63,471 bases of DNA, filler included, from Anaerolineae bacterium (GCA_029262755.1; 5 parts of 5 records of this genome joined end to end with filler, not necessarily neighbours in it), one strand, 5' to 3'. Positions 6,439 to 63,471 are shown, numbered from the whole stretch's first letter. A program made the numbers and translations. Notes: generated by a model from the letters alone, not told the origin.

Positions 6439-7920
6439 TCAATCGGTCCGGATCAGCCTCGGCAGGTAGAGGAGATATCCGGCTGACAGCGAAGGTACGG
6501 TGGGCCGCACATCGGTCGGCGTTGCGCTCGAAGGGCTTCGCGTCGGGGTCAGCGTGCGGGTTGGTATCGACGTCCGCATTGGTGTCGCTGTTCGGGTAGG
6601 GGTAGACGTGGCATCGGGAGGCGCGCCGTTTGGCGTCTCGGTTGCCGCGGGGGTCGGCGACGATCCACTGCTGCGTGCAGCGGCGGTCGCCGTCGCATTC
6701 GCCGCGAACGATCCGCAGTCATCGTCCTTGCGCCCCTCCCGGTAGATGCACACCCGCTCCGCGCGGAAGCGATCGATCACCCGGTCGGCGCGGAACAGTG
6801 AGATTAACCCCGGTCCCGGCGCAGCCGCGAGAGCATGCTCGCCCGGCGTGAGATCGGCCGCGGCGCGCAATTGGTAGCGGTAGGCCAGCGTTCCTTCACG
6901 CGCGGGGCGGACGGATTCGGTCCACGCGATCCAATGCGGGCTCGCTTCGTCGGGGGCTCGGGGCAACACACCGGAGGATTCGAGGGTCCAGGCGTCGTCG
7001 TCCAAGGGATGCTCGTAGCGCAGTGACGTCGGCGCCTGTTCGCGCAACGTGGCGTCCACGATGGCGTCGATGATCTCCGCGAGATCCGCGCCGGCCGGCG
7101 AATGGCTCTCGAAGAACAATCCCGTGGTCGCGCAGCCGGCGTAGCGTCGCTCGGCCGCGGGCAGGGAGACAATGGCGAGGGCGAGCGACGCCGTGGCGCT
7201 AAAGCAGGCGCCTGTGTTCTCATCACCCCGATTCTGGAAGGGCTGCCCTGCGTCCACCAAGAGGACGATCCGCCTGGGCGCAGCCGGCATGTTGCCTACG
7301 GCGGCCTGCAGGCCCGTGAACTGGCGCGGATCCCCGTCCATCGGCTCTTCGAGGCGCCCGATCGCAGCCCGGACCGCGTCGCGATGCGCCTTCCCGCCAG
7401 CGACCTCAGCGTCGAGCCGCCACGACCTGGCATAGCGCAAGAGCCCCACACGGGCGTCGACGGCATCCGCGGCATCGAGCAGACGTGGCATCGCCAGCTT
7501 CAACGAGAACAGCGGTTGGGGTAGACCCCAGGCCTGACTGCCGCGAAGTGCCTCGCTGTCTTCGATGGCGATCATCAGATCGGTCGGCGGGAGGTTGCGG
7601 CCGTCACAGGCCCAGCGAACGTCGACGCGCACGGTCGCCACGTCTCCCGCTCGCAGAACCGGGGGCGAGACCGACCGCTGCATGACGACCCCGCATGGCA
7701 CGGTCGGCGCGATCGGCGTCGGTCCCGGGGTCGGCGGTCGCGGCCCGCCGCGCTGGGCAGGGGACGAGGAGGGCGACGAGGCGAGTACGGCCGGGATCGT
7801 GGTTGAGGTCGACGCCGATCGCATCAAGATCGGCGCGATCAGGCCGCCGCTCGCGCCGGCGACGAGGACGACGACGACGGGAACGGCGAGCCGCCTTCGA
7901 CGCTGCTTGGGCACGCGCAT
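6439..7920 (-). CDS. Secreted/membrane-anchored VWA-domain protein with degenerate MIDAS, Pro/Thr linker and C-terminal YLP motif
   Basis: N-terminal hydrophobic segment, VWA-like core (LMIAIEDSEAL...RVGLLRY...RIVLLVDAG), PT-rich tail ending YLLYLPRLIRTD. Confidence 0.75.
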   Translation of the reverse strand: MRVPKQRRRRLAVPVVVVLVAGASGGLIAPILMRSASTSTTIPAVLASSPSSSPAQRGGPRPPTPGPTPIAPTVPCGVVMQRSVSPPVLRAGDVATVRVDVRWACDGRNLPPTDLMIAIEDSEALRGSQAWGLPQPLFSLKLAMPRLLDAADAVDARVGLLRYARSWRLDAEVAGGKAHRDAVRAAIGRLEEPMDGDPRQFTGLQAAVGNMPAAPRRIVLLVDAGQPFQNRGDENTGACFSATASLALAIVSLPAAERRYAGCATTGLFFESHSPAGADLAEIIDAIVDATLREQAPTSLRYEHPLDDDAWTLESSGVLPRAPDEASPHWIAWTESVRPAREGTLAYRYQLRAAADLTPGEHALAAAPGPGLISLFRADRVIDRFRAERVCIYREGRKDDDCGSFAANATATAAARSSGSSPTPAATETPNGAPPDATSTPTRTATPMRTSIPTRTLTPTRSPSSATPTDVRPTVPSLSAGYLLYLPRLIRTD

Positions 7921-7972
7921 GGCCCCATCATACAGCCATGCCAGTGTCCATCCGGCAGTTCATTCGTGCGCG

Positions 7973-8000
7973 CGCAACCTTCCTTTCTCGACCCTTGTAT
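7973..8000 (+). promoter_or_regulatory. Putative ECF sigma-dependent autoregulatory promoter
   Basis: CGCAAC-N17-TGTAT ending 9 nt before the sigma ATG; identical boxes and spacing recur at 10001-10028. Confidence 0.65.
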
Positions 8001-8009
8001 CCTCCCCAC

Positions 8010-8576
8010 ATGTCGCATCCGCCCGACCGCGAGCTGGCCCTGGCTGCCAGACGCGGCGACCCCGACGCCTTTGGCGAGCTTGTCCGACGTCATCAGGCGT
8101 CGGTCTTTAACGTTTGCTATCGCTTGTTGGCCAACGCCGCCGAGGCGGAGGACCAGGTGCAGGAGACCTTCTTGCGTGCCTATCGGAAGCTCGCCCTCTA
8201 CGATCCATCGCGCCCGTTCGGGCCGTGGATTCGACGCGTGGCGACGAACCTGTGTTACAACCACCTGCAGAAGAACCGCCCGGTGCGCGTCGCGCTGGAG
8301 GACGAGCGCGACCGTCCGGCGGAAGGCGAGGCGATGGATCCGGCGAGTGCGGCGCAGCGCAGCGTGCGCGCCGCGGCGCTACGCCGGGCGATCGCCGTCC
8401 TACCACCGCACTACCGCGCCGTCATCGAGCTACGCCACTTTCAAGGGCTGAGCTACGGCGAGATCGCCGACACGCTCGGCCAACCGCTCTCCAACGTCAA
8501 GAGCCACTTGTTCCGCGCTCGGCGCCAACTGGAACAATCCATGCGCGAGGAAGGATGGGGTGATGTCAACGCCTGA
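8010..8576 (+). CDS. ECF RNA polymerase sigma factor (SigW-like)
   Basis: GDPDAFGELVRRHQ, AEDQVQETFLRAY, FGPWIRRVATN, region 4 LSYGEIADTLGQPLSNVKSHLFRAR. Confidence 0.95.
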   Translation: MSHPPDRELALAARRGDPDAFGELVRRHQASVFNVCYRLLANAAEAEDQVQETFLRAYRKLALYDPSRPFGPWIRRVATNLCYNHLQKNRPVRVALEDERDRPAEGEAMDPASAAQRSVRAAALRRAIAVLPPHYRAVIELRHFQGLSYGEIADTLGQPLSNVKSHLFRARRQLEQSMREEGWGDVNA

Positions 8577-9306: not shown

Positions 9307-9327
9307 TCGCGCCGGAGGAGGCGAACG

Positions 9328-15030: not shown

Positions 15031-15073
15031 GTCGGCGTTCTCCTGTGGATGATCGCAGGGCGAGACCCCGTCG

Positions 15074-21117: not shown

Positions 21118-23055
21118 CTACGGCGCGGTACGTCCGCGCACCGGGGGCCAGTCGCTGCCCCAATCGTGGCGTCCCTTCGGACACTGGAACACGTCCGCGA
21201 TCTCACCGTAGATGTCGGCCAGCTCGTCCGCCCGCGGCGTGATGAACGTACCGCCGTCGGCCGTCGCGCACTCCGCCAACAGCCACGGGTAGACCCAGTC
21301 GATGATGTCGTCGGACTGATCCTGCGTCTTGCCGAAGCCCACCGTGAAGATCCGGATGTCGGTCGCCGCCGCGGCCTTTGCCGCATCGATGACCGTCTCT
21401 TCCGGTCGGTTGGTGTCCGGATGGAACGGAACGCGGTTGGGCAGGCCGTCGGTCAGCATGATCATCACCGCCGTGTTGCCTACCTTGCGCACCGCCGGAT
21501 CCAGCGCCGTCGCACCCATCTGGAAGGCCTTGTCGAGGCGCGTGCCCTCCTGCTGGTACTGCGTGATGGTGTCGAGCGCGCCGATCACGTCGTCCTTCGC
21601 GTTGGTCAGCGACTGCGCGATGCCCGCGTCGTCGTTGAACCACACCACGCCGGCCTGGTCGTGCTGACCCTTGAAGTTCGGCGTGAAGTCCAGGCGATCC
21701 ACAAAGGCCTTCGCCGCGTCCACCACCGCCACCTTCTTGGCGATTCCGTCGTCTGACACACGGTCCATCGAGGTCGACATGTCGATCACGAAGACCACGT
21801 CCACCAGCTTCTCATCGATCGAGCATGCTTCCTTGACCGTGATCGGCAGGTAGATCGGGCCCGGCGTCGGCGTCGGGGTGTTGGTCGGGGTGTTCGTCGG
21901 GGTCACCGTCGGGCCGACCGTCGGTGTGTTGGTCGGGGTCGGCGGAGGCGGCGGCACCGTCGAGGTCGAGAGCGGCCGCGGGTTCAGCACGAGGATGTAG
22001 GGATCGCGGAAGTCGAACGTGCCCTTCCGGCTCTTGTTGTCGGTGAACTCGCCCCACGCACCGTTATTCGTCGGCCAGTGCCCGACCTCCTGCGGCTTCA
22101 CCTTGAAGCTGAAGGTCACGCCCTCGCGCGGCACGAACGAGGTCCGCCACTCAAGCTGGTCGTTGTTCGGACCCGTCGAGTTGGGTGCGGGCTCCGCACT
22201 GCCTTCCACGAGCACCATATTCGGCGGGAGGTTGTCGACCACCTTCAGGCTCTTGAGCAAGATGCTCTGAATCTGGCGGCGGATCTGCTCGAAGACGTTG
22301 GCCAGCTGGCTGGCCGAACGCGCCTCGAAGAAGTAGCGCGGGCTCGTCGCGACCTGGCGCATGCACTGCGCGTCGCAACTGGTGCCTACACAGACGGTGA
22401 TCAGCAGGATGCCCTGCGCCTTGACCTTGCCTGCAGCGGCCTGCACATTGCCGCAGCCCTGGTTGTCCTCACCGTCGGACAACACCACCATGACCTCGCG
22501 GATCGCGTCCGGATCGCCGATTCCCTGGCGGCCCTTCTGCAATACGCGCAGCCCAGCGTTGATGCCCTCGCCGATATTCGTTCCACCCGCCGCGCCGACG
22601 CGTCCGACACAGCCGCTGGCCGTACCGGAGCGGTTGGTCAGCTGGCAGAGGATCTTCGCGGCCGAGTTGAACATGACGACGCCGACCTGCGTGGCCGGGT
22701 TGTCCTTCATGTTCAGGCGCTGTACGAGCTGACGCGCCGCTTTCTTCATTTCGCGGTTCGGCTCACCGGCCATCGAGCCGGATCCGTCGAGCACGAGCAC
22801 GATGTGCAGCGGGAACTGCTCGCCCGCGCACAGCGCCGTAACGGTAAGGGTGATATCGACCGTCTCGCCCAACAGGATGACCTTGGGCGAGGCGTCCTTG
22901 CGGTTGACCGCAACACAGGACGACTCACCGCGACCCTGTGCGGCGGGCGCTTCGGCCGGCGCGGCTGAGACATTCGCCACACCAAGCACAACCAACGAAA
23001 TGCCAAGCACGGCAACGGCCATGGTGGCAGCAATCAAAGATCGGAATCGGCGCAT
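21118..23055 (-). CDS. Secreted protein with two VWA domains and an internal PT linker plus YLP motif
   Basis: GGAGG RBS, signal peptide, MIDAS motifs LDGSGSM and IDMSTSM, PTPTPGPIYLPITVK between the domains. Confidence 0.9.
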   Translation of the reverse strand: MRRFRSLIAATMAVAVLGISLVVLGVANVSAAPAEAPAAQGRGESSCVAVNRKDASPKVILLGETVDITLTVTALCAGEQFPLHIVLVLDGSGSMAGEPNREMKKAARQLVQRLNMKDNPATQVGVVMFNSAAKILCQLTNRSGTASGCVGRVGAAGGTNIGEGINAGLRVLQKGRQGIGDPDAIREVMVVLSDGEDNQGCGNVQAAAGKVKAQGILLITVCVGTSCDAQCMRQVATSPRYFFEARSASQLANVFEQIRRQIQSILLKSLKVVDNLPPNMVLVEGSAEPAPNSTGPNNDQLEWRTSFVPREGVTFSFKVKPQEVGHWPTNNGAWGEFTDNKSRKGTFDFRDPYILVLNPRPLSTSTVPPPPPTPTNTPTVGPTVTPTNTPTNTPTPTPGPIYLPITVKEACSIDEKLVDVVFVIDMSTSMDRVSDDGIAKKVAVVDAAKAFVDRLDFTPNFKGQHDQAGVVWFNDDAGIAQSLTNAKDDVIGALDTITQYQQEGTRLDKAFQMGATALDPAVRKVGNTAVMIMLTDGLPNRVPFHPDTNRPEETVIDAAKAAAATDIRIFTVGFGKTQDQSDDIIDWVYPWLLAECATADGGTFITPRADELADIYGEIADVFQCPKGRHDWGSDWPPVRGRTAP

Positions 23056-23267
23056 CGGTTTCGTTCCTCCGTGTCGGGCCCAGCCTGCGTGTGCTCTTGG
23101 GGAGCGTCGGCGAGGCCCGGCGAATTGTGGACTCATGCACCGATTCGGCGCATGCGGCCCGTGCGGTGCGACCGCCTCAAGCACCCCTATCAACACCCCA
23201 ACCTGTCTTCGCTGACACCCTGACGCGGACTTGGGTTTCACGCGCTCGATCTCCTGGATCGAGCGCT

Positions 23268-23321
23268 TTGACGTTCGCCTGACGTTCGGCTCGCGAGCCC
23301 TTGACGGGCACTCCGTACTCT
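23268..23321 (+). promoter_or_regulatory. SARP/BTAD-type activator direct repeats plus -10 box
   Basis: TTGACGT (23268), CTGACGT (23279), TTGACGG (23301), periods 11 and 22 bp; the last repeat lies 8 nt upstream of TACTCT (23316). Confidence 0.6.
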
Positions 23322-23453
23322 CCGCCCCAGTGGCGCATTCGCCGGTCGATCCGCGACTGCAGCGCCAGGAGCGAGACTCATGTTCGAGGGCAACTAGCAC
23401 GTCGTTTTCCATTCCTTTTCGATTTCGTACCCGGTCCTTTCAGGGAGGCAGTC

Positions 23454-23757: not shown

Positions 23758-26273
23758 ATGAACGGCTTGTTCACCAACACGCTGTCCACCAGCACCCTGT
23801 CCACCCAAGTCCACCCGCTGCGACGTTTCGTCGCGATGCCCGCACGCATGGCCCTCTCGGCCTTGCTGCTCGCCGTCGCACTCGTTGCCCACGTCTCCGT
23901 CGCCTACGCGCAGTCGCCGGTTCCCGCACCGTCCTCGCCGGCCAAGCCGGCCATCGCGAGTCCCGAGGGCGCCAGCGCACAGGCCTTCATCCCGGTTCTC
24001 AACTACCTCGGTCAGGACGAGATCTGTGACTCCTGGGTCGAGGCGCAGAACATCGGCGCCGACTTCTCGGCCATGAGCCTCGTCGCCTTCGGCGCGCCTG
24101 GCTTCTGCGCTCCGCAGGCCGCCGGCCCGCTCAAGATCGAGTGCTCCGGTATCCTCAAGCCCGGCTCCGCCTGGAACTTCCTCGGCGCCCAGATCCCCAC
24201 CGGCGCCAAGTCCGCCCAGATCTTCAACTTCACCACCAAGACCCTCTCCGACATCGGCCTCGAGGACGTCCTCGGCTTCGACGACATCGTCTCCGAGTAC
24301 TTCTGTGAGAACGCCTTCTTCGGCCTCGTCGGTGACGCCGACGACTTCCGTCGCTTCAAGCTCGCCTACGACACCGCCGGCACCTTCGCGGGCATCCCGC
24401 TCGACCTCGCCTACGGCGGTCCCATCGCCGTCGAGGTCCTACGACGCTGCGCTTCGCCCGATTCGCCCGGCGTCATCACCTCCAAGTACAACGCGATCTC
24501 CGGCCGCCGTCTCGGTGTCTACGATCCCCTCTTCGGCGGCTTCACCCACTTCGTGCCCCTGCTCTACGCCTCGGCCGCCGGCTTCGAATCCGTCATGTAC
24601 ATCCAGAACGTCGGCCTCGAGTGCTCCACCGTCGAGATCTGGTTCCAGCAGCAGGACACCTGCCTGCGCGCCTCCATCTGCGAGGTCTTCACCCTCGCCA
24701 TGGGTGAGACCTACCAGTGGTCCGCCAGCGAGTGTGTCGGGCCCGGTTGGGTCGGCTCCGCATGGCTGCGCACCTCCCAGCCCATGGCCGTCACCATCGA
24801 CCACGTCGCACCCGGCCTGTTGATGACCTACACCGGCGCCTACGGCTTCCTGCGCTACGCTTTCGACGGCGAGTACACCTACAACCCCGGTTCCCAGGTG
24901 GCCTTCGGTCCCCTCGTCTACTCCGAGTACCAGGGCTGGGACTCCGGTGTCGTCGTACAGAACCTCTCCTCCACCGTCAACGCCAAGGTCAAGGTCTACT
25001 TCCTCGACCGCTCCGGCGACATCATCACCACCCTGGTCGACTGGGTCTGCCCCCGCGGCTCGCAGTCCTTCTACCTGCCCGCCATCGCGGATCTGCCCGG
25101 CAACTGGGTCGGCAGCCTCCGTGTCGAGAGCCAGGAATGGACCACCCCCGGTAGCCCCCTCGTCGAGGCGCCTCCCATCTCCGGCGTCGTCCAGCTCGTG
25201 AAGTACCCCGACATCCAGCGTCTCTCCACCAACGAGGCCATCGCCTACAACCTCCTCCAGGAATACGACGCCTACGACTGGCAGATCGGCAACGACGGCG
25301 GCGGTACCGTCTCCGGCACTTCCGTCCTGGCCATCCCCAGCCTCAACAAGGACCTCAACGCCACCGGCATCACCTCCGAGGTCGCCATCACCAACTTCAT
25401 CCCGGTCCCGGGCTTCACCGACTTCGCCATCTACATCTACGACGCGAACGGCCTGCTCGACTACGTCTGCCAGAAGCTCAACGAAAAGCAGGTTGAGTAC
25501 ATCGACCTCCAGACCTGGGGCTACATCAACAACGGCTTCAAGGGCTCGGCCATCGTCTCCGCCACCTACTGGCACCACCCCGTCTTCGACGCGGACGGCG
25601 ACTTCCTCCGCCACGTCGTCGGCCTCGGCGGTGTCACCATCGAGCGCAACGGCGCCGCGCTCCTCGCCGAGGACCTCCCCGGCGACGAAGCCTCCGGCTC
25701 CCTGGCCTTCCCGGTACACGAGTCCTTCATGTTCATGGGCCTCGAAGCCCCCAACTGCCCCGGCCTCACCCCGGCCGACCGGCCCAACGACTGCCCGCGC
25801 ATCATCGAGTTCCCCTCGGGTGACCTGAGACTGCCCATCATCGACAACACCACCACCGAGCACACCATCAACCTCACCCAGGGCCTCGGCCGACTCAACG
25901 AGACCTGCCAGATCACGGACGTCGACGTCCAACTCGCGGTGGTCCACACCGACATCGGCGACCTCACGGTCGAGTTGCGCCACGCCTTCGAGACCAACGC
26001 AGGCGGCCCCGCCCAGACCGACTCCCAGCTCCTGTCAGGCATCTGCGCCGGCTCCGGCACCCTGGTCACCGAACTCGACGACGACGCCACACGCCCCATC
26101 GGCTCGGTGTGCCCGCCCATCGGCGACATGTTCACCACCTTCGGCGGCCTCAACGTCTTCGACGGCGAGTACCCCGGCGACGACTGGACCCTCCGCATCA
26201 CCGACAACCTCCCCGGCGACAACGGCGAGCTCCGCAACTGGACCATCCAGGTAAGCACCGAGCCCATCCCGTA
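23758..26273 (+). CDS. Large secreted beta-repeat protein with C-terminal proprotein-convertase P domain; candidate S-layer/major surface protein
   Basis: AAGGAGG RBS, signal peptide (AYA-Q), four repeats of hydrophobic-P...S-x-x-x-x-[QT]N, P domain (ITDVDVQLAVVHTDIGDL...WTLRITD), extreme C-ending codon bias; ends at a probable TA(N) stop at the contig edge. Confidence 0.8.
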
Positions 26274-33179: not shown

Positions 33180-34532
33180 ATGTCGTCTAATCCCCGCCCC
33201 TTCCTGCTTCCCGTGGCATCCGGCCGGCACAAAGCGTCGCGCTTCGCGCTCGTCGCCGCCTCCGTGCTCGCCGCCTCTGCGGCCGTCGCGACGCGCCCCG
33301 TCCCCGCGCAAGAGACGGGTACGGGCGCGGTGCGCGTCGCGGCCGTCGAGTCGCTCGGCGTCGTCACGTTTGCGACCGGCACGAGCTTCGAGGGCACGAC
33401 GGTCGGTGGCTGGTCGGGCATCACGTGGGCGGGCGTGGCGGAAGGCGGCGATGAACACACCTACTACGCGGTATGCGACGACCGGAGTCAGATCAACCCT
33501 GCCCGCTTCTACACGCTGGAGATCGACGTCTCGGACGGCGCTCTGGAACCCGGCGACGTGACGATCCGCGCCGTAACAACGCTCCTCGACGAAGAGGGCC
33601 AGGCCTACGCAGGCGGTGCCATCGATCCCGAGGGCATCGCAATTCGATCGGACGGCACGCTGCTGATCAGCTCCGAGGGCGACGCGCGCGCGGGCCTGGC
33701 GCCCTCGATCACCGAACACGGGCTCGACGGCCGCGCGACCGGTTCTCTGCCTGTGCGCGAGCACTTCCAACCGGCCACGGACGGCAGCCGGGGCGTACGC
33801 AACAACCTGGCCTTCGAGTCCCTGACGATCGCACCGGGTGGCGGCACCCTCTACACCGCGAGCGAGGCGGCCCTCGTGCAGGACGGGCCCGTGCCCACCG
33901 TCGAAGACGGCAGCCCCGCGCGTATCGCGCAGTACGATCTGGACACGCGCCTGCCCGGTCCGGAGTGGATCTACCCTGTCGCTCCCATCCCCGTCGCCCC
34001 CAACCCGCCGGAGGGCTTCGGCGACAACGGCCTGCCCGAGCTCATCGCGCTGGATGATCAGGGCACCCTGCTCGCCCTCGAGCGCTCCTTTGCCGTGGGC
34101 GTCGGCAACACGATCCGCCTGTTTGAGACCAGCACCGCCGGAGCACGCGACGTTTCCCTTCTCGACGCGCTCCCGCCGGGTGAGGGGGGCGATCCGACGG
34201 CGCTCGAGGGAGCGCTCGTCAAGCGCCTCGTCGCCGATCTTGGGGAGCTCGGCATCCGGCCGGACAACGTGGAGGGCATGACCTTCGGCCCGGAGCTGGC
34301 GGACGGACGTCGCCTCCTGATCCTGGTCAGCGACAACAACTTCAACGCCGTCCAGGTCACCCAGGTCATCGCGCTGGCCGTGACGCTGGAGACCGTGGGC
34401 GGTCCGGACCCGGAGCCGACGCCGAGCCCTTCGTCCGCAACGGCCACCGCGACGGCGACCGTGCAGCCCACCGCAATGCCGACGGCGACGCCCCGCTCGC
34501 TGTACCTGCCACGCCTGCTGCACGACGGTTAG
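33180..34532 (+). CDS. Secreted phytase-like esterase (beta-propeller) with PT linker and C-terminal YLP motif
   Basis: GGWSGI, DPEGI, ISSEG, NLAFESL, LERSF, DNVEGM, VSDNNF; ends SLYLPRLLHDG. Confidence 0.9.
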   Translation: MSSNPRPFLLPVASGRHKASRFALVAASVLAASAAVATRPVPAQETGTGAVRVAAVESLGVVTFATGTSFEGTTVGGWSGITWAGVAEGGDEHTYYAVCDDRSQINPARFYTLEIDVSDGALEPGDVTIRAVTTLLDEEGQAYAGGAIDPEGIAIRSDGTLLISSEGDARAGLAPSITEHGLDGRATGSLPVREHFQPATDGSRGVRNNLAFESLTIAPGGGTLYTASEAALVQDGPVPTVEDGSPARIAQYDLDTRLPGPEWIYPVAPIPVAPNPPEGFGDNGLPELIALDDQGTLLALERSFAVGVGNTIRLFETSTAGARDVSLLDALPPGEGGDPTALEGALVKRLVADLGELGIRPDNVEGMTFGPELADGRRLLILVSDNNFNAVQVTQVIALAVTLETVGGPDPEPTPSPSSATATATATVQPTAMPTATPRSLYLPRLLHDG

Positions 34533-42216: not shown

Positions 42217-44112
42217 CTACCGAACCGCGAGCGGCAAGAACACGCGCGGGATCTCATCGAGGATGACCAGCTCGTAGGTCAGGCAGTAGCAACCGCTCGG
42301 GGAGTACGGCTCGCAGTCACGCTCGTTGTCGCGGTTGATGTTGAGATTGTTGACCGGACAAGCACGCAGCACCGTTCGGTGCTGATCACCGGCGGCCAAA
42401 CTTCCCGGCAACGCCTCGAAATTGATCGCAAGCTGCAGTTCCGAAGGCTGACCCGGCTGCTGCGCCAGCTGTTGATCGCTGATCCACGGCACGTCCTGAC
42501 GAATCTCCCACGTGCGATCGTTTAGCTTGTGGTTGGCGATGCGCATCGTGGCGGCCTTGTCATCACGCTTCACGTAGTGACGCAAGGTGCTCACTGGGAG
42601 ATCGATACGCCACGCCATGGTCTCGACGGCTCGCTCGAGGTTCGCGACCCCGCATCCGAGAAGGTCGTTTCGCTGGGGGGCGCCGATGAACGGACCTCCG
42701 CGCGAGCGGGACGCTGTGTTGCACAGCTGAGACTCGACCTGGAGGGGGCTCATCGAAGGGTTCGCCGACCAGAGTAAGGCCGCAGCGCCGGCGATATGGG
42801 CCGCCGCGAAATCACTGGGTTGGGGATGCAATGGCCCCACCGACTGCATATCGGAGTAATTCTCCGAGTTGACCGTCGTCCAAAGGGTCTCGCCCGGGGC
42901 GGCGATATCGACCCAACTGCCGGTACTCGCATCCACTCGCGATGCGTACTCCGGACTGATGGAGGCCACCGCCACGACGCGATCGAGCGCGCCCGGTAGC
43001 AACGCCGGGTTGGCGCCGTAATCCTCTTCCGAGGGACACACGCCGCGGTTGCGATCGTGCAACTGTCCACACTCGCCGGTCGGGGCGACGACAAACACGC
43101 CCTGTTGGGCTGCGTGTTGGACGGCCGCTCGCAGGCTGCCGATGGAACCGAACCACTGCTCTTCGAAATTTGGGTCGCGCAGGATCAGACCACCCATCAG
43201 GATGATCCGCGCCCCGTTGTTCGTCGCGTAGCAGATCGATTCGACCAAGTTGCGGGTATAGCTCGCAGGCACTACGCGTTCGTTGCCCTCTGCGTCCGAC
43301 AACGTATAGGGGAACATCGCCTGAAGAGGCATGATACGCGCGCCCCACGAGACACCCGCAATGCCGTACTTGTTATTCGTCTCAGCCGCGGCGATGCCGG
43401 CCATCATGGTGCCGCGGTTGCCGGTGCTCACGGTACGCCGTGGCCCCATGGAGATCGGCGATGGGTCGTTGTCGAAGCTGCCGAAGTCCCAGCCGTAGAT
43501 GTCGTCGACGTAGCCGTTTCGGTCGTCGTCGATGCCGTTGGCCGGAATCTCGTTGAGATTGCGCCAAATCTTGCTGGCCAGATCACGATGTTGCAGGTCC
43601 ACGCCATCGCTGATGACCGCGATCGTGACGTCCGAAGAGCCGAACGTAATCTGCCATGCTTCATGTGCGCTGAGGATGGCGCGCAGGTTTTCGGTCTGTC
43701 CGGTCCGAAAGAACGTGTCGTTCGGACGGGTTGCAAGCTGGTTCAGTTCATCCACGCCCGCGAGTTCCGCACCGTCAACCGTCGCGGAGCCACGCTCGAC
43801 CGCGCTCGCCATCTGCGCGCTGAACGCCGCTGCTCCATACTCGTCGTGAATATCTGGCACGCCGAACACCCGCGGGACCGCGGCCGGGAAGCGCATCGCG
43901 GCATCCACCGAGGAAGAGGAGCCATTGTCGAAGGTGGGAACGCGCAGTGCGGGCTGTAACCGGCCGAGCCATTCCGCGCCGCATACGCCGTTGCGACCGC
44001 CTGCTTGCGCGTGCACGGATGCGGGTTCGGTCATGGGGGGCTGCAAGCCGATCCCCGTAAGGATCAGCGCGGCAACGAGCCAGCGGGTGGATGTGATTCC
44101 GGGGTTGGGCAT
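42217..44112 (-). CDS. Secreted S8 subtilase homologue with substituted catalytic residues; C-terminal FLP motif
   Basis: Signal peptide, NGIDDDRNGYVDDIYGWDF, GIAGVSWGARIMPL, VDIAAPG; ends RVFLPLAVR. Confidence 0.85.
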   Translation of the reverse strand: MPNPGITSTRWLVAALILTGIGLQPPMTEPASVHAQAGGRNGVCGAEWLGRLQPALRVPTFDNGSSSSVDAAMRFPAAVPRVFGVPDIHDEYGAAAFSAQMASAVERGSATVDGAELAGVDELNQLATRPNDTFFRTGQTENLRAILSAHEAWQITFGSSDVTIAVISDGVDLQHRDLASKIWRNLNEIPANGIDDDRNGYVDDIYGWDFGSFDNDPSPISMGPRRTVSTGNRGTMMAGIAAAETNNKYGIAGVSWGARIMPLQAMFPYTLSDAEGNERVVPASYTRNLVESICYATNNGARIILMGGLILRDPNFEEQWFGSIGSLRAAVQHAAQQGVFVVAPTGECGQLHDRNRGVCPSEEDYGANPALLPGALDRVVAVASISPEYASRVDASTGSWVDIAAPGETLWTTVNSENYSDMQSVGPLHPQPSDFAAAHIAGAAALLWSANPSMSPLQVESQLCNTASRSRGGPFIGAPQRNDLLGCGVANLERAVETMAWRIDLPVSTLRHYVKRDDKAATMRIANHKLNDRTWEIRQDVPWISDQQLAQQPGQPSELQLAINFEALPGSLAAGDQHRTVLRACPVNNLNINRDNERDCEPYSPSGCYCLTYELVILDEIPRVFLPLAVR

Positions 44113-54032: not shown

Positions 54033-55622
54033 CTAGGGTCCGACCGCCACCTCGGCGCCTGCGCGCAGCGCTGCCGCCCAGACCGTGCTCGTGGCCTCGA
54101 TCGGATCGAGGAACGTTGCCGGGTAGATACCGATCCACAGTACCAGAACGACGAGCGGGAGCAGCACGGCGATCTCGCGCGCGGTGAGGTCCGTCATCGA
54201 TGCGGAGAGCTCGCTCTGGGGGCCGAAGAACACCCGTTGGAACATGGAGAGCATATAGAGCGCTCCGAGGATGACCCCGAAGGCGCCGAGGATTCCCCAG
54301 ACCGGATGGGCCTGGTAGGCGCCAAGCAGCGACAGCCATTCACCGACGAAGCCGTTGGTGCCCGGCAGACCGACGCTTGCAAAGAGGATGATCAGGAACA
54401 ATACGCTGAAGCGCGGCATCGCGCTCCAAAGACCGCCGAAGGCCGCGATCTCCCGGGTGTGGGCGCGCTCGTACAGCATGCCTACCAGGAGGAACAGGGC
54501 GCCGGTCGTCAGGCCGTGGTTGACCATCTGCAACACGCCACCGGCCATGCCGATTGCGTTCAGCGCGAAGATGCCGAGCATGATGATGCCCATGTGGCTC
54601 ACCGAGGAATACGCTACGAGGCTCTTCATGTCCTCCTGCGCGAACGCCACCCAGGCCCCGTACCAGATCCCGATCACGGCCAGAGTTAAGAACCAAGGCG
54701 CCGCCGCATGTGCTACTTCGGGGAAGAGGGGCAGCGCGAAGCGCACGAAGCCGTAGGTTCCCATCTTGAGCAACACGCCGGCCAGGATGACGGACCCCGC
54801 GGTCGGCGCCTCGACGTGCGCGTCGGGTAACCAGGTATGGAACGGGAAGAGCGGCACCTTGACCGCGAAGGCCAAGGCGAAGGCCGCGAAGAGCGCCACG
54901 CGCAGGTCCATCGCGAACGTGGTGCCCGGAATGCCGAAGCGCTGATCGAGCGCGGGGCGGACCATGCCGCCGATCACATCGAAGTAGTGGAATGAGCCGT
55001 TGCCCGCCCATTGCGCGAGCCCAATGATCGCGACCAACATCAGCGCTGAGCCGGCCATCGTGTAGAGCAGGAATTTGTAGGAAGCATAGATACGCCGCGA
55101 ACCGCCCCAGATACCGATGAGCAGGATCATCGGGATCAGGGCCGCTTCCCAGAATACGTAGAAGAGGAAGAGGTCCAGCGCGCAAAACACGCCGAGAATC
55201 CCTGTTTCTAGGATGAGCATCAGCGCGATGTATTCGCGAACGCGTACCCGCACCGCCGTGGCGCTGAACAGGAGGGCGAGCAAGCTGAGCAGGGTGGTCA
55301 GCCAAACGAGCACGATGCTGATTCCGTCGACGCCGATCTGGAACGTGATGCCGCCGGGCAACCAGCGCGCCGGTGTCGCCGGGTCGGCGAACTGGAACGC
55401 GGCGCGCGGCGAGTTGACCATCCAGTCGCTGTCGTAGCCGGCGAGCATGCCGGTTGACAATGCGAATGCGGCGCCCGCGGTCATGATCGCGATCGCGAAA
55501 TCGAGCAGCGGATGGCGCTTGGGCATCAACGCGATCAGCACCGCGCCGGCAAGCGGCAGGAAGACCGTAAGGCTCAACAGGGGGAAACCCTGGGCGTTGG
55601 CCGTCTCGAGCATCGGTAGCAT
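54033..55622 (-). CDS. nuoM: NADH-quinone oxidoreductase subunit M
   Basis: FYVFWE, KVPLFPFHTWLPDAHVEAPTAGS, LLKMGTYG, AYSSVSHMG, GLPGTNGFVGE. Confidence 0.97.
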   Translation of the reverse strand: MLPMLETANAQGFPLLSLTVFLPLAGAVLIALMPKRHPLLDFAIAIMTAGAAFALSTGMLAGYDSDWMVNSPRAAFQFADPATPARWLPGGITFQIGVDGISIVLVWLTTLLSLLALLFSATAVRVRVREYIALMLILETGILGVFCALDLFLFYVFWEAALIPMILLIGIWGGSRRIYASYKFLLYTMAGSALMLVAIIGLAQWAGNGSFHYFDVIGGMVRPALDQRFGIPGTTFAMDLRVALFAAFALAFAVKVPLFPFHTWLPDAHVEAPTAGSVILAGVLLKMGTYGFVRFALPLFPEVAHAAAPWFLTLAVIGIWYGAWVAFAQEDMKSLVAYSSVSHMGIIMLGIFALNAIGMAGGVLQMVNHGLTTGALFLLVGMLYERAHTREIAAFGGLWSAMPRFSVLFLIILFASVGLPGTNGFVGEWLSLLGAYQAHPVWGILGAFGVILGALYMLSMFQRVFFGPQSELSASMTDLTAREIAVLLPLVVLVLWIGIYPATFLDPIEATSTVWAAALRAGAEVAVGP

Positions 55623-55647
55623 TCCTACGGGGAGGAGCGAGCCCGGA

Positions 55648-57945
<2,298 letters not shown>

Positions 57946-58016
57946 GGGTTGGCCCTCGGGGCGGTGGGCGGCGGAGCGATTGGCGCGCTGTGTAGGGGGC
58001 GAATACCGGGCGGTGC

Positions 58017-58325
58017 CTAGCCGTGCATGACGCTTACATCATCAACGTCTGTGCGGCCTAGGCTGCGCCAGATAGCCACCACGAGCGCAAGACCGACGGC
58101 CACCTCTGCGGCAGCCACCGTGAGGCTGAAGAACACGAAGAGTTGGCCTTCGATTTGCCCATGGGCGCGCGCGGCAGCAACAAGCGCGATGTTGACCGCA
58201 TTGAGCATGAGCTCCACGCTCATCAGCACGATCATCACGTTGCGCCGCAGGAGCACGCCTGCCGCGCCGACGCCGAAGAGCGCGGTGGTCAGCAAGAGCC
58301 AATGTCCGAGGGGTACGGCGTTCAT
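58017..58325 (-). CDS. nuoK: NADH-quinone oxidoreductase subunit K
   Basis: RRN...MSVELMLN, VAAAEVAVGLAL. Confidence 0.97.
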   Translation of the reverse strand: MNAVPLGHWLLLTTALFGVGAAGVLLRRNVMIVLMSVELMLNAVNIALVAAARAHGQIEGQLFVFFSLTVAAAEVAVGLALVVAIWRSLGRTDVDDVSVMHG

Positions 58326-58855
58326 CCGCTCGTCTCCTCGGGGTCTTCGGACTGCGATCCGAATCGGGCGATCATGACCGCGCCGATCAAGGCCACCAAG
58401 AGCATCAGGCTGACCCACTCGAAGGGCAGCACCCAGTCGGTGAACAAGGCCTGACCGATCGCTTCGGGCGAACCGAAATCACCGGTGAGCGGCGGGGGCA
58501 TGCGCCCGGCGGCCGGTGCGCGGGCTACCGCCACGCTCAGCAAGGCGACCAACGCAACGAGCCCGAAAACGGCCGTCGCACGATGCCCGGCGATGGGCTC
58601 ACTGCGGGTCATCGGTTGTGCGCCGAGCAGCATGACCACGAAGAGGAAGAGAACCATGATGGCGCCGGCGTATACGATCACCTGTACGGCGGCGATGAAC
58701 GGCGCTTGCAGCACGAGATAGAGCACCGCGGTCAGCAGAAAGTTGCCGACCATCCACAACGCGGCGTGCACCGGATCGTTGCTTCGGATCATCGCTCCGG
58801 CGCTGAGCAAGAGCAACGCGCCCACCACGTAGAAAAGCAAGACCTCGGCGCTCAC
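58322..58855 (-). CDS. nuoJ: NADH-quinone oxidoreductase subunit J
   Basis: QVIVYAGAIMVLFLFVVMLL, LPFE. Confidence 0.96.
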   Translation of the reverse strand: MSAEVLLFYVVGALLLLSAGAMIRSNDPVHAALWMVGNFLLTAVLYLVLQAPFIAAVQVIVYAGAIMVLFLFVVMLLGAQPMTRSEPIAGHRATAVFGLVALVALLSVAVARAPAAGRMPPPLTGDFGSPEAIGQALFTDWVLPFEWVSLMLLVALIGAVMIARFGSQSEDPEETSG

Positions 58856-59454
58856 AACGAAGGTGCCTGTGCTTCGGGGGCGGTATCTGGCTCGCTGGGG
58901 GCGGCCGGCACGGGCGCGGTGCCCGGAGCCGCGCCGATACGCGCCACGATCGGCACCGAGAAGTAGTCCATGCCGCCCATGCGGAACGGCACGTCGCGCC
59001 CGCGGGTGTCTTGCGGCGTGTCGTCGCCCGAGGCGCCGGGCGGCACCAGGAGCATGTCCTTGGTGTAGATCGTCTCTCTGCGGTCGTAGGCCGCCAACTC
59101 GTACTCGTGTTCAAGCACGATCGCGTCGGTGGGGCACGCTTCCTCGCAGAAGCCGCAGAAGATACAGCGCATCATGTTGATCTCGTAGACTTCGGCGAAT
59201 CGTTCCCCCGGGGAAAATCGCTGCTCATCGCTGTTCTCCGCCGGCACGACGAGGATGGCGTCCGCGGGGCAGGCGGCTGAACACAACGAACAGCCGATGC
59301 AACGCTCTAATCCGTTCTCGTAGCGCTTCAGCTCGTGCCGACCTCGAAAGCGCTCCGCGACGGGCCGTTTGTGCTCCGGATATTGGACGGTCAACGGCTT
59401 GCGGAACATGGTCCGCAAGGTGACGCCCATACCCTGAATGAGGGCTCCGATCAT
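58852..59454 (-). CDS. nuoI: NADH-quinone oxidoreductase subunit I
   Basis: TVQYPE, RFRGRH, two [4Fe-4S] motifs CIGCSLCSAACP and CIFCGFCEEACP. Confidence 0.97.
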   Translation of the reverse strand: MIGALIQGMGVTLRTMFRKPLTVQYPEHKRPVAERFRGRHELKRYENGLERCIGCSLCSAACPADAILVVPAENSDEQRFSPGERFAEVYEINMMRCIFCGFCEEACPTDAIVLEHEYELAAYDRRETIYTKDMLLVPPGASGDDTPQDTRGRDVPFRMGGMDYFSVPIVARIGAAPGTAPVPAAPSEPDTAPEAQAPSL

Positions 59455-59482
59455 CGTGATCCCACCTTCTTCGGATGCATCG

Positions 59483-60393
59483 TCAGGAAGCTCCCGGACC
59501 GGCCAGCTGCCACCAAGCTAGGACGGCCGCCGTCACAGCGACGTTGGCGATGGAGAGCGGCAATAGCCATTTCCAGCCGAGCGACATGAGTTGATCGTAG
59601 CGCAGCCTCGGTACCGTCGCGCGCAGCCAGATGAAGAAGAACAGCGACAGGATGATCTTGCCGGTGAACACGGCGATATCGACGAACCAGGGAAGGTCGA
59701 TGCCCAGCGCGCTCTCGATAAAGGGCAAGTGGTAGCCACCGAGGAACAAAGACACGGCGACGGCGCTGACCGTGATCATGTTGATGTACTCGGCCATGAA
59801 GAACATCGCGAAGCGCATTCCGGTGTACTCGGTGTGGTAGCCGGCCACCAGCTCTTGCTCCGCCTCCGGAAAGTCGAAGGGCGCACGGTTGGTTTCCGCC
59901 AAGGCCGTCAGCACGTAGATGCCAAAAGCCACCGGCTGCAGCAGGATCAGCGGTATGCCCCAAGCGCGCTGCGCGTCGATGATCTCGTTGATCGACAGCG
60001 TCTGCGTGATCAACACGATCCCGATCAGGCTCAAGCCCATCGCCAGCTCATAGCTGACCATCTGCGCGGAGGAACGCAGGCCGCCGATCAACGAGTACTT
60101 GTTGTTCGACGCCCATCCGGCCAGCACCAGCCCGTACACGGCCAGCGACGTGACGCCGAGCAGATAGAGCAGGGCGACGTTGAAATCGGCGATCTGGAAG
60201 CGGATTTCGCGCAGTTGTCCGCCCAGTTCCACGGTTACGGGATCCGCGGCCGGTATGACCGCGAAGGCCAGGATCGCGACCACGAGGCTCACGATCGGTG
60301 CCATGTAGTACACGAAGGAGTCCACGCCTACGGGTGTGATGTTCTCCTTGAACAGCAGCTTCAGCCCATCGGCCGCCGGCTGCATCAATCCGA
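59483..60393 (-). CDS. nuoH: NADH-quinone oxidoreductase subunit H (5' truncated)
   Basis: QPAADGLKLLFKE, AETNRAPFDFPEAEQEL, PRLRYDQLM. Confidence 0.96.
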
Positions 60394-60626: not shown

Positions 60627-60628
60627 GT

Positions 60629-60656
60629 AGTCTAGCAAGGCTCGAAGAATTGTCAA
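60629..60656 (-). promoter_or_regulatory. Near-consensus sigma70 promoter
   Basis: TTGACA-N16-TAGACT with extended -10 TG. Confidence 0.75.
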
Positions 60657-60939
60657 GCGTTTTCTGGATTCCCGTTTCAACGGGGCCGCTGGAGCGACTT
60701 GCGGAGCGTGTCCGCGCCCCCTTTAATGACCTCGATCGCGGTCCCGCAGTCTCCACCCCGTTGCCGTGGAAACCCGGGTACTCAGGCCTATCCGTCCCAG
60801 ATTCCTCATGAGCAAGCGGAGATGCCGGTCCATGTCCGACTCGACGTCCCAAACATCGTGGACGAATCTTGCCCGAACTTCGCGACGCGCCCGAATTTTC
60901 GGATTCTTTGGCGCATGTGGCGTCCTGGCAGGCTGTCGG

Positions 60940-61110
60940 ATGCTCGGCGACGGTGTCCGCAGCCGAGCGCGGAGGAACAGGATTTGGATGGGTGGAGCTT
61001 CGTTACTGGCAGGGATGCTCTTGCTCGCGGCTGCGGCTCGTGAGCAGACGTCCGTGCGCTCCCTTCGCGCCTCCATCGCACCGCAGCTCGCCCCGCCGCC
61101 CAACCTGTGA
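60940..61110 (+). CDS. Possible small single-pass membrane protein
   Basis: 56 aa with basic N-terminus and a hydrophobic helix; stop overlaps the Nudix GTG (GTGA). Confidence 0.35.
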   Translation: MLGDGVRSRARRNRIWMGGASLLAGMLLLAAAAREQTSVRSLRASIAPQLAPPPNL

Positions 61111-61757
61111 GCACGGATTCCCGACCGGCATCCGACCGTCCACTCGGCGCGTCGCTCGGCTGGCGACAGATCAATCGCCGCTACCTCTTCCAAAGCCCAT
61201 GGTACTCGCTGCGACAGGATGAATTGGTCTTGCCGAACGGCAGCACCGCCCAGTTCACCTTCGTCGAGCATCCCGGATTCGTTTCGATCGTACCGGTTCT
61301 GCAAGACGGTCGCGTGGTGCTGATCCGCAGCTATCGCTACCCGGTGGACGAATGGGTGCTCGAGGTGCCGGCTGGTGGGCTGGGCTCTGCGTCGAAGCAC
61401 CCAGCACTGACCGTCGATCGGGCTCACGCGGAGCTCTTGGAAGAGACCGGCTATGTCGCGGACTCCATGGACCGGGTCGGCGCATATTGGTCGGCGATCG
61501 GGAATAGCCGCTGCCGAGCCCACGTTTTCCTCGCTTCCGGCCTCCGCTCCGCTGCCGCGCAGTCGTTGGAGCCGACGGAACACATCGACATCGTGCCGAC
61601 CCCGATGGCAGACGCCGTAGCGATGGCCCGCGACGGTCGAATCCAGGACGGCCATAGCGCGCTCGCCCTATTGATGTGCGAGCCCCATATGCGTCGTGGG
61701 CCGGCACTTCGATCCACGGGCCCAGGCGCATCATCCATCCCAGGCACGGAATCCTGA
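61107..61757 (+). CDS. NUDIX hydrolase (ADP-ribose pyrophosphatase-like)
   Basis: VEHPGFVSIVP, YRYPV, LEVPAGG, ELLEETGY, GRIQDG. Confidence 0.88.
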   Translation: MSTDSRPASDRPLGASLGWRQINRRYLFQSPWYSLRQDELVLPNGSTAQFTFVEHPGFVSIVPVLQDGRVVLIRSYRYPVDEWVLEVPAGGLGSASKHPALTVDRAHAELLEETGYVADSMDRVGAYWSAIGNSRCRAHVFLASGLRSAAAQSLEPTEHIDIVPTPMADAVAMARDGRIQDGHSALALLMCEPHMRRGPALRSTGPGASSIPGTES

Positions 61758-63471
61758 TGTCGCGTGCGCGCGTGCCAAAGGATTGCGAGCCGCAAGACCC
61801 CGATGCTCGCACAGATGTAAGGTGCCGGGGCCCCTCATCGGCGCGACCGTCTCGACCGACTACCGTTCGAGTTGCCACCTCGGTCTTCCCGCGGCTTCTT
61901 CGCAGCGCGGGCGTTGTGCTGCTGTTGGTCACTTTCATCGCGCTCACTGAAGGCCCCGAGCGGCGATCGCTCGGCCAGACGAGACCTGCACCTTCGATTT
62001 ACTTGCCGCGGGTTGCTGCGGGAAGTGCGCGCTGGCCCAGCCCGGAGCGCACCGCCCGGTTTTGGGCCGCCGTCGACGCCTTCGTCGCGCACCAGCCCCC
62101 CGAGCAGTTGTTTGGGCACTACGACCGCGATCCGAGCCGTCTCGCGGCCATCGAGAATGTCTTGGCAGGTTGTCATGACTTCCCTGATCTGCCGGATCAC
62201 TTTGGCTCCGGAGCACACCGCCGCGCCTGCGACTTTTGGGTTGCGACGCCCCTTGCGCTGCACCACCTCTCGGCAGCACGGCGCGCAGCTTCCAATCAAG
62301 AATCGATTCATGGCATGCCGGCCTGGGAGCACGAGGCCTGGGCCCGCCAATACATCGGTGTCGCCAACGAGGTGATGGCGGACTTCACCTTTGGACCGGA
62401 CGGTGATTCTCCCCGCGTTCGTGGCCGCTTCCGTGATACGCGGGCAGCCGTTTGGCAGAACACCCTCCGGGCCGCCGACCTCGCGCTCGTCCTCGATCTT
62501 GCCCGCGACGCGGACATCGTGCCGGTCGAAGCGGACGGTCTACGAGCGTCGTACGTGTTGGAGGAAGTGGCCGCTGCTTGGTACGGCCACTTTGGTCCCG
62601 CGAGGGTCTTGCCTGCGGCAACCAACGTGTTGACGACCACAGCGCTCCACAGAGATCCCGGTGACGGTCACAGAGCCGATGTCTTGTCCCATGTACCGCA
62701 TACGTTCCGCTGGGACCCAGACCACGGCAATTCGGCCATCGAAGAGATGGCATGGATGGCCGCAGGTGCACGGTTGGCAATGCGCCTAGAGGAAGGCGAA
62801 TCGCAGGACAGCCGGTCGACCAAGTCCTTGGCGGACGCCTACCTGGATTCTGTGTTCAGCGCCGGTCGAATCGACCCCATGTCTGGGCGGCGGGCCTTCA
62901 CGCTTGGGACCGAGACCACCGGCGGCGCCTATGGCCAAAACAGATTGTGGGTGGAAAATCACCAGCCCGACATGCCCTCCACGCCGTATCTGTTCAGCAC
63001 GTGGCACTACCTCAGCCTCGCCATGATGGGTCACGATGGCAATCCCGCAACTCCGTGGCCATCCTTGGCGGATGAGGCGCAGTGGCGCCTCACGCTCGAC
63101 GCGGCCGAGGCGACGTTGCACGCGCCGGATGGGGGCTTCCTGCTCAATCTTGAACCCGGCGGGCATGTCGGCTTCCAGATGGCGAACTATCCGAAATGGA
63201 CGATGCCGTGCGGTCGGTGGCGATCGGGGGCGCAGTACGTCGAGGCGGTCGCGGGTGATGGAACGGCCATCTACGTATCTGAGGTGGGCCACCCGGCCGG
63301 CACCGGGCTGCTCGCCGCGGCGGCACCGTTGTGGCGTCTGGCCGCGGAACGGGGCGATACAGCAGCAGCTGTCCTCTGGGCTTCGCGCGCGGATGCGGCG
63401 CTTCGTGAGGTCATCGCTCGGCCGCCCGACGGGGCCACGCTGGCGTGCAACGTCGCGCCATGGGTGTCGGC
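61757..63471 (+). CDS. Large secreted/membrane-anchored hypothetical protein with N-terminal YLP motif (3' end outside window)
   Basis: Not in the ORF track because it has no stop. Hand translation is open for 571 codons from the TGATG overlap; hydrophobic segment GVVLLLVTFIAL then PAPSIYLPRVAAG. Confidence 0.75.
   Translation, partial: MSRARVPKDCEPQDPDARTDVRCRGPSSARPSRPTTVRVATSVFPRLLRSAGVVLLLVTFIALTEGPERRSLGQTRPAPSIYLPRVAAGSARWPSPERTARFWAAVDAFVAHQPPEQLFGHYDRDPSRLAAIENVLAGCHDFPDLPDHFGSGAHRRACDFWVATPLALHHLSAARRAASNQESIHGMPAWEHEAWARQYIGVANEVMADFTFGPDGDSPRVRGRFRDTRAAVWQNTLRAADLALVLDLARDADIVPVEADGLRASYVLEEVAAAWYGHFGPARVLPAATNVLTTTALHRDPGDGHRADVLSHVPHTFRWDPDHGNSAIEEMAWMAAGARLAMRLEEGESQDSRSTKSLADAYLDSVFSAGRIDPMSGRRAFTLGTETTGGAYGQNRLWVENHQPDMPSTPYLFSTWHYLSLAMMGHDGNPATPWPSLADEAQWRLTLDAAEATLHAPDGGFLLNLEPGGHVGFQMANYPKWTMPCGRWRSGAQYVEAVAGDGTAIYVSEVGHPAGTGLLAAAAPLWRLAAERGDTAAAVLWASRADAALREVIARPPDGATLACNVAPWVS

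Follow-up and report, generated by a model that had tools for sequence, protein, structure and literature searches.

What is the purpose of a short strand carried by five otherwise unrelated exported proteins? The window analysed here, 63,471 nucleotides with filler included, consists of five whole contigs (C192, C193, C195, C196, and C202) of the Anaerolineae bacterium genome GCA_029262755.1 (G000), with spacers between them. A first-pass annotation had pointed to one such motif per contig, and each of the five is indeed present, in frame, and where it had been placed.

The first tag, YLLYLPRLIR (6448..6477, minus strand; score 19.2 with the matrix described below), is C-terminal, two residues ahead of the stop, in an exported, weakly VWA-like protein with a Pro/Thr linker (6439..7920, minus strand). 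For its earlier label of VWA, Pfam finds no family, and the sole support is a weak match (E 0.002) to the double-VWA protein of the second contig. For that exported protein (21118..23055, minus strand; the start is inferred, and the open frame extends to 23412) the label is sound, as Pfam finds VWA within 21118-23412. Its tag, PIYLPITVK (21832..21858, minus strand; residues 519-527; score 13.0), is internal; a Pro/Thr linker precedes it, and the second VWA domain follows (from residue 539 in the Pfam match). The exported phytase-like esterase (33180..34532, plus strand), also correctly named according to its Pfam match to Phytase-like, carries the C-terminal tag SLYLPRLLH (34497..34523, plus strand), which was chosen for co-folding as the peptide encoded by 34428-34529. 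RVFLPLAVR (42220..42246, minus strand; score 21.7) lies at the extreme C-terminus, with the stop immediately after it, of an exported protein of the S8 subtilase fold (42217..44112, minus strand; Pfam Peptidase_S8). Because RGT stands in place of the His motif, we take this protein to be probably inactive. Finally, SIYLPRVAA (61994..62020, plus strand; score 17.4) is N-terminal, right behind a signal-like stretch, in an exported protein with no Pfam family (61676..63469, plus strand), whose start is uncertain and whose gene is cut by the contig end.

The tag extends well beyond these five proteins. Within the 3473 ORFs that our own gene caller finds in this genome, a strict regular expression has 199 matches, compared with 71±10 in 30 shuffles, and 68 matches no more than 16 residues from the C-terminus, compared with 1.6±1.3. 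A matrix trained on those 68 C-terminal tags yields 127 C-terminal matches versus 1.4 in 5 shuffles, a count that is circular for the 68 seeds. The consensus is h-[YF]-L-P-x-h-h-R, and 4-5% of the genes in this genome bear the tag. C-tagged proteins of at least 100 residues (n=126) fall into 79 single-linkage families. The enrichment in signal-peptide proteins that had been proposed as a check is found: among C-tagged proteins whose gene is complete at the 5' end, 79 of 101 have a signal-like N-terminus with no further transmembrane (TM) helix, versus 644 of 2471 untagged ones (odds ratio 10, by our own heuristic). Proteins called cytoplasmic score as well in 25 of 1309 cases, many of them paralogues with an evident linker and a signal that went undetected. 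As had been claimed, the tag is portable on exported proteins, being C-terminal in 70, internal in 32, and N-terminal in 10 of 112 signal-bearing proteins; a linker rich in Pro, Thr, Ser, and Ala precedes it in 44/70 C-terminal and 23/32 internal cases. Relatives are titled Ardenticatenales and Anaerolineae, in keeping with a tag on exported proteins of Chloroflexota.

These positions bear on whether a sortase-like enzyme, such as a C25/PorU-like protease, reads the tag as a signal for cleavage or transpeptidation. The majority of copies are C-terminal, and a PorU-like C25 protein, below the cut-off, is present in the genome. However, the 68 strict C-terminal matches lie no more than 16 residues from the end of their chains, leaving no TM helix or basic tail after the tag; the 42 internal or N-terminal copies lie where cutting would lose the enzyme portion; and the C25 protein bears the tag itself. 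A cleavage signal is thus highly improbable, even though NCBIfam uses the name "putative sorting motif" for a very similar sequence.

Judged by sequence, the tag is a diverged form of this NCBIfam "YLP-box putative sorting motif", which is represented by NF050076 (sort_motif_YLP, 11 positions) and NF053834 (ultrashort_CTERM, 10 positions). Consequently, the motif itself is already catalogued and is not new, contrary to what the first-pass annotation had supposed, although the models come without a mechanism. They resemble our tag set in consensus and host group; their names imply a C-terminal signal, unlike the distribution over positions seen here. NF050076 matches 14 places in the genome (2 over the cut-off) and NF053834 matches 11 (all 11 over the cut-off); the majority of these places belong to the tag set, and a protein of contig C237 with a sibling tag reaches 12.3 bits against the YLP-box cut-off of 10. 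None of the five window tags was listed by either model in searches with whole proteins, excised tails, or the whole genome, in which HMMER filters drop weak matches. The available portion of the model description names no receptor or mechanism. Literature searches, with subscription journals outside their scope, returned no paper on the tag, a receptor, the YLP-box, or either accession; the S-layer table of 10.1101/2024.05.28.596244 may list the acceptor family described next.

By their coordinates, two of the 14 NF050076 matches (C212:2227 and C358:112) are β1 strands of ASRAH repeats. The ASRAH superfamily (ASRT 2II7, TM1070 1NC7; Pfam ASRT PF07100 and DUF5719 PF18986) is described as an eight-stranded sandwich with a Trp at the start of β1 and a predicted ability to bind wall sugars, arranged as dyads or tetrads, and includes amidase-fused tetrads (De Souza, Iyer and Aravind 2009, PMC2739507). 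The candidate acceptor is encoded outside the window, on contigs C190 and C212, as a paralogous stand-alone four-repeat protein. It belongs to a conserved family of secreted proteins of 450-500 residues with four ASRAH repeats, found in many Chloroflexota; the accessible parts of PMC2739507 make no mention of a stand-alone tetrad without β1 or of a peptide tag. The family resembles other ASRAH proteins in its sandwich fold, the Asn at the end of β2 (N52, N159, and N277 are invariant and N398 is nearly so in 78 sequences), the sets of four repeats, and the existence of secreted Chloroflexi members. It differs in that β1 of repeats 2-4 starts with V, L, or I instead of the ASRAH Trp, and in that repeat 1 has only seven strands.

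The β1 strands of repeats 2, 3, and 4, in rows picked with the tag matrix, read V-V-L-P-L-V-V-R, L-Y-A-P-L-I-R, and V-A-L-P-L-V-R-R. An h-x-h-P-x-h strand lies ahead of these three repeats in 257/280, 264/297, and 265/294 homologues, respectively, and in 116/116, 115/116, and 110/116 of a second set. For the N-terminal repeat 1, a β1 motif past the signal peptide is seen in just 11/196 and 0/111 homologues of the two sets. With signal peptides included, a plain regular expression matches repeat 1 in 32/196 and 55/111; the latter 55 were discarded, as all lie within signal peptides. Five of the 11 β1-bearing first repeats (P0179, P0188, P0245, P0259, and P0282) are natural fusions, holding a tag-like strand in cis.

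Structure prediction agrees with this strand count. In a compact AF2 model of the family member P0123 (pLDDT 90.9, pTM 0.88), repeat 1 consists of seven strands and every other repeat of eight. The acceptor model aligns with TM1070 (1nc7) with a Z of 13.4 and an rmsd of 2.8 over 110 residues, the best unrelated fold reaching 7.2, and the alignment begins at the LP strand (model residue 371 versus TM1070 residue 3). Searched against PDB sequences, the acceptor profile yielded a single chance match (E 0.67). The codon score of the acceptor half-gene is unremarkable (rank 859 of 2463).

The first-pass annotation had proposed another receptor, the exported protein encoded at 23758..26273 (plus strand), which runs off the contig end and contains a complete four-ASRAH module (~23968-25752) and a C-terminal P-domain. 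This choice was in the right superfamily, since hhalign aligns the module with the acceptor at a probability of 99.5, and docking there, with the tag displacing or joining the module's own strand, would be in keeping with about 25 paralogues in the genome and a strong codon bias (rank 67 of 2463). The predicted module is a compact body of four repeats (pTM 0.89) that aligns with 1nc7 (Z 13.2, rmsd 2.6, 105 aligned; best unrelated fold 6.3). A Foldseek search with the whole module gave mostly low-TM complement matches, from which 1nc7 alone stood out, and both module types align with ASRT at a Z of 9.9-10.6. However, the first repeat holds its own β1, AFIPVLNY (23983..24006, plus strand), as do 65 of 66 family members; in the model this is strand E5-8, and it fills the place left vacant in the acceptor. 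Thus, there is no empty slot in this protein, and it is probably not the acceptor; of all the readings, docking into this type of module earns the least credence from us. The 23758 protein is a self-completed relative of the acceptor family. Some self-completed modules carry a tag too (C404, C375, and C157).

Tag insertion into the strand-less protein is predicted by co-folding. P0123, a stand-in 91-94% identical to the genome's own protein, was used because the latter's gene is split over two contigs. Residues 36-489 of P0123 with the phytase tail give an ipSAE of 0.87 (0.87, 0.86, and 0.88), compared with 0.02 for the best of three controls; the mark for this score is reached by 116/157 solved pairs and 2/215 mismatched pairs, rough figures obtained with our own alignments. 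At least 89% of contacts are common to the runs, with a partner pLDDT of at least 51. The contacts involve only peptide residues 22-34, which are the tag, and on the acceptor side mainly residues 98-117 and 43-50 of repeat 1 and 154-160 of repeat 2. These runs cover one of the five window tags, in its natural sequence, and one acceptor. The predictor may place any β1-like strand in the gap, because the same chain offers three examples. Within repeats 1-2, conservation is higher in the 46 interface columns than in the remaining 158 (0.74 versus 0.55), a gap that may reflect buried core strands. The earlier idea of a non-covalent β-strand tag survives at the level of prediction, where co-folding with controls predicts docking; the receptor first proposed for it is not supported.

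The distribution of the two partners was compared in 150 genomes of the phylum, kin included and hence not independent. Of the 32 genomes with a strong four-repeat match, 14 have at least six NF053834 matches, compared with 0/13 genomes with a weak one and 0/105 without; all 14 tag-rich genomes thus carry the acceptor family. In module-negative genomes (n=5), 0/24 NF053834 matches end a long ORF. The remaining 18/32 module-bearing genomes have fewer than six matches, as counted with an insensitive NCBI model (7 matches in G000 at E<=2), and three of the five re-examined have none detected. Modules in these three genomes would fit a tag that derived from β1 and is now read by some other receptor, an export chaperone, or a wall polymer, as would the small lipoprotein or membrane-anchored protein that adjoins the module gene at 14/25 loci (such a neighbour was not clearly found in G000). 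However, another reader leaves unexplained the phylum-wide absence of β1 from repeat 1, the presence of the module in every tag-rich genome, and the co-fold, and a strand of 10 residues is presumably too short to serve as a stand-alone binding domain. We regard another reader as unlikely, although it is the alternative that we weigh most heavily.

The same docking could also serve a released protein, a scaffold or sheath part that brings enzymes together in extracellular complexes. A membrane anchor is absent from the module, and in 36 cases a strand-less module and a tag occur on one protein, which could self-close or chain head to tail. Conversely, glycan genes lie within ~1.5 kb of the acceptor gene at 16/25 loci, most genomes listed have the stand-alone form once or twice, and with a single slot per module, a coat would be a more natural role than a multi-enzyme scaffold. 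A released scaffold is accordingly an outcome that we consider quite improbable.

The reading that we favour, and hold to be probable with real room for doubt, is that the tag is a free-standing copy of β1, which slots in trans into the strand-less repeat 1 of the secreted four-ASRAH protein and so displays its cargo. The likeness of tag to β1, the missing β1, the enrichment, and the co-occurrence, all features of the sequences, are consistent with this. The four repeats would pack as a pseudo-tetramer in which repeats 2-4 hold all eight strands. Repeat 1, starting at β2 right behind the signal peptide, would leave an open slot at its interface with repeat 2. After export, the tag would enter this slot by donor-strand complementation in trans, leaving the cargo hanging by its Pro/Thr linker. 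Because insertion needs no cleavage, the tag could function at the N-terminus, at the C-terminus, or inside the chain. The four-repeat protein would sit on the wall, probably by binding a surface glycan or as an outer protein layer, and modules with their own β1, such as the 23758 protein and giant paralogues, may be self-completed anchors. Since the tag appears to be the acceptor's one missing strand, tagged proteins would probably attach to the cell surface by clipping in this strand.

A bolder version, which we advance tentatively and rate at somewhat under an even chance, is that the strand-less protein forms the protein coat of the filament with one slot per subunit, into which 100-200 unrelated secreted proteins per genome plug: an enzyme-free tag-and-catcher system without a described equivalent. 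Its predicted lattice formation may be compared with Litorilinea, for which the accessible part of one report describes a lattice-like layer and an outer protein layer with no assigned protein (PMC13319060, section 2.2). Among 1,272 Litorilinea proteins, the second by intensity in the data available, A0A540VDF2 ("CARDB domain-containing", 49.0 kDa), is of a size that fits the acceptor, a likeness of size alone. The acceptor homologue search and cluster look-up contained no Litorilinea record.

In donor-strand complementation, known from chaperone-usher, type V, and archaeal bundling pili, another chain provides the one strand that a β-sandwich is missing. The acceptor sandwich likewise lacks a strand, which would be supplied in trans according to prediction. 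However, the fold is ASRAH rather than Ig, and the donor is a portable tag on ~80 unrelated cargo families rather than the next subunit. Sortase LPxTG, PEP-CTERM, T9SS CTD, SLH, and cohesin-dockerin systems also mark unrelated exported proteins for the surface with a short common module. The tag differs in that it has no TM helix, fixed position, or evidence of cleavage, and in that it consists of ten residues instead of a folded domain.

What is likely new here, then, is a receptor and a mechanism for a catalogued tag: a receptor, a slot, and contact residues can now be named for the YLP-box, a motif for which the searches returned no mechanism. If correct, this would explain a tag borne by so many of this genome's genes, would widen the role of donor-strand complementation beyond the assembly of pili to the display of cargo in general, and would offer a short, position-independent tag for protein engineering. 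For the Chloroflexota, it bears on how these bacteria build a multilayered envelope and retain enzymes there.

The window, five entire contigs of an Anaerolineae genome (5.06 Mb, 66.8% GC, 84% complete) joined together, carries five [YF]LP motifs, here called tags. All five are in frame where the first-pass annotation had placed them, and their carriers are unrelated, as it had claimed, except for a weak VWA-like match between two of the five; the five-motif observation is confirmed. Among the 3473 ORFs of the genome (our own gene caller), 68 have the strict motif within 16 residues of the C-terminus, compared with 1.6 in shuffles, and a matrix built from these 68 tags finds 127, with 1.4 expected; 126 of the 127 C-tagged proteins fall into 79 families. 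By a home-made signal-peptide heuristic, the tag shows the enrichment in signal-peptide proteins that the annotation had suggested looking for (79 of 101 C-tagged proteins are called export-like vs 644 of 2471 others); by the same heuristic, matrix-scoring tags also occur in 25 of 1309 proteins called cytoplasmic. Where the carrier bears a signal peptide, the tag lies at the C-terminus in 70 cases, internally in 32, and at the N-terminus in 10, and with tags at all three positions a cleavage signal is a very unlikely reading of the motif.

The motif itself is not novel. NCBIfam already models it in NF050076 and NF053834, the latter described as 'YLP-box putative sorting motif-containing protein', and these match the genome at 14 and 11 places, respectively. 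Neither model picks up any of the five tags in the window, and so they are diverged siblings of the YLP-box. Neither the YLP-box name nor the two accessions occur in the literature searched, which also yielded no receptor or mechanism for the tag in print; the likely receptor and mechanism proposed below are what is new here.

Several genes of the window and genome have features of their own. The layout at 21118-23055, in which an internal Pro/Thr linker and tag are followed about 4 residues on by a Cys, recurs in more than 10 other proteins of the genome; the Cys possibly forms a disulfide closing the following domain. The subtilase-fold protein at 42217-44112 has RGT as its His motif and a Ser motif that is also altered, and from its sequence is likely a pseudo-protease. 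A C25/PorU-like protein on contig C304 (12887-16063, locus L014), below the NCBIfam cut-off, ends in a tag, and the 2151-aa protein upstream is also tagged. A run of membrane-protein genes at 54033-60388 looks, by eye, like a segment of an NADH dehydrogenase (nuo) operon.

The first-pass annotation had proposed the exported repeat protein at 23758..26273 (+) as a possible docking receptor. Its 600-residue module has about 25 paralogues in the genome and is often terminal in giant proteins, the longest being 11,555 aa; relatives of the 23758 protein come from Ardenticatenales and Anaerolineae. Giant exported proteins (about 2,200-11,555 aa) on contigs C209, C44, C108, C384, and C205 end in a complete four-ASRAH module of this type, with conserved Cys. 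An AF2 model of the 23758 module has four packed sandwiches (pLDDT 86, pTM 0.89) and matches TM1070 (Z 13.2) and ASRT (Z 10.6); the modelled fold assigns it to the ASRAH superfamily (De Souza, Iyer and Aravind, PMC2739507). These authors already noted secreted ASRAH tetrads in Chloroflexi and proposed sugar binding for them. A tag-like strand opens every repeat of the module, and since repeat 1 retains its own first strand, β1, in 65 of 66 family members, this family has no free slot. Docking of the tag to the 23758 module is very unlikely.

The genome also encodes another family built from this type of repeat (hhalign probability to the 23758 family 99.5). Its stand-alone member, the likely acceptor, is split over contigs C190 and C212; P0123, a close homologue, shares 94% and 91% identity with the respective halves. 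The mature chain begins at β2, immediately after the signal peptide, in proteins of this genome and in diverse homologues from others. An h-x-h-P-x-h strand precedes repeats 2, 3, and 4 in 257/280, 264/297, and 265/294 cases in a first set and in 116/116, 115/116, and 110/116 in a second. At N-terminal repeat 1, the raw counts are 32/196 and 55/111, or 11/196 and 0/111 when signal-peptide matches are excluded; five of the 11 exceptions have a tag-like strand fused in cis. Where repeat 1 follows a cargo domain, β1 is present in 11/54, and so is mostly missing. In an AF2 model of P0123 (pLDDT 90.9, pTM 0.88; match to TM1070, Z 13.4), repeat 1 has seven strands and each of the other repeats has eight. 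Searching the PDB by sequence turned up no solved structure related to the acceptor. By coordinates, 2 of the 14 NF050076 matches in the genome are β1 strands of acceptor-type repeats.

On contig C212 (1-4068, locus L017) and at locus L006, two diverged paralogues come after the stand-alone gene, with no β1 in repeat 1 and a tag-like strand at the end; a third, 14 kb off, ends in a truncated tag-like strand. These tag-ended paralogues may be self-closing or chaining. Many proteins of 1000-1700 aa (P0216-P0246 and others) combine two or three strand-less modules with a single C-terminal tag, which leaves more slots than tags in those proteins.

The tag probably docks as a donor β1 into this strand-less four-repeat acceptor at the wall. 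P0123 residues 36-489 (78-row alignment) were co-folded with the 34-residue tail of the window phytase-like protein (33180-34532; tag-side alignment of 41 rows, tags of this genome), giving an ipSAE of 0.87; the best of three controls gave 0.02. For comparison, 116 of 157 solved complexes reach the mark, as do 2 of 215 mismatched pairs; for our own alignments, these counts are only rough. At least 89% of contacts recur between runs, with a partner pLDDT of at least 51. Contacts come from peptide residues 22-34 only, i.e., the tag, whose Tyr-Leu-Pro touches repeat 1 at residues 104-107 and 117 and repeat 2 at residues 156-158. Because ASRAH strands 1, 3, 4, and 6 share one sheet, according to PMC2739507, the position beside β6 would be the β1 place, which the docked tag would occupy. 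The acceptor chain itself offers the predictor three β1 examples, and for this reason the co-fold shows fit and descent, not binding in the cell.

A survey covered 150 other genomes of the phylum; related genomes among them do not count as independent, and the NCBI model has low sensitivity. At least six NF053834 matches were present in 14 of the 32 genomes that had a strong four-repeat hit, in none of the 13 that had weak hits, and in none of the 105 that had no hit. In five module-negative genomes, 0 of 24 matches end a long ORF; of five module-positive low-count genomes, two have one genuine-looking tag each and three have none. Thus no tags were seen where the module is absent, while the module can be present in genomes in which no tags are detected, which would be expected if it had its own role in the envelope. 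That the tag is read by another receptor is unlikely. In family f2 (10 genomes, of the same class as the window genome), 10/10 have no four-repeat hit and, at E≤2, each has at most three NF053834 matches; the entire system may have been lost in this lineage.

Genes for glycosyltransferase, flippase-like, Wzt, nucleotidyltransferase, or PMT proteins lie beside the four-repeat gene at 16 of 25 loci, a count covering 51 of 81 neighbouring ORFs scanned. A small lipoprotein-like gene adjoins the stand-alone gene at 14 of the 25 (L018, L019, L026, L028-L030, L032, L034-L036, L038, L042-L044). Its product, of 150-280 aa and at least three sequence types, is lipobox- or TM-anchored with a Pro-rich linker and is a candidate membrane tether; no clear match is found in the window genome. 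The idea that the four-repeat protein is a released scaffold is quite unlikely. In genome G043, an Ig-repeat protein with a clear terminal tag is encoded upstream of the four-repeat gene (L021:3021-4361). PMC13319060 describes a lattice-like outer protein layer in Litorilinea. In its Table 2, on the surface-filament fraction, A0A540VDF2, a 49.0-kDa 'CARDB domain' protein, ranks second by intensity, and several secreted proteases also rank high; in size, A0A540VDF2 would fit the acceptor.

Under donor-strand docking, cargo and acceptor would be exported separately, and the acceptor would be held on the wall through glycan binding or lattice contacts. The tag is predicted to fill repeat 1 as β1, and the linker would allow the cargo to extend outward. 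This mechanism would explain why the tag is independent of position, why it has no membrane anchor, and why it has its consensus.
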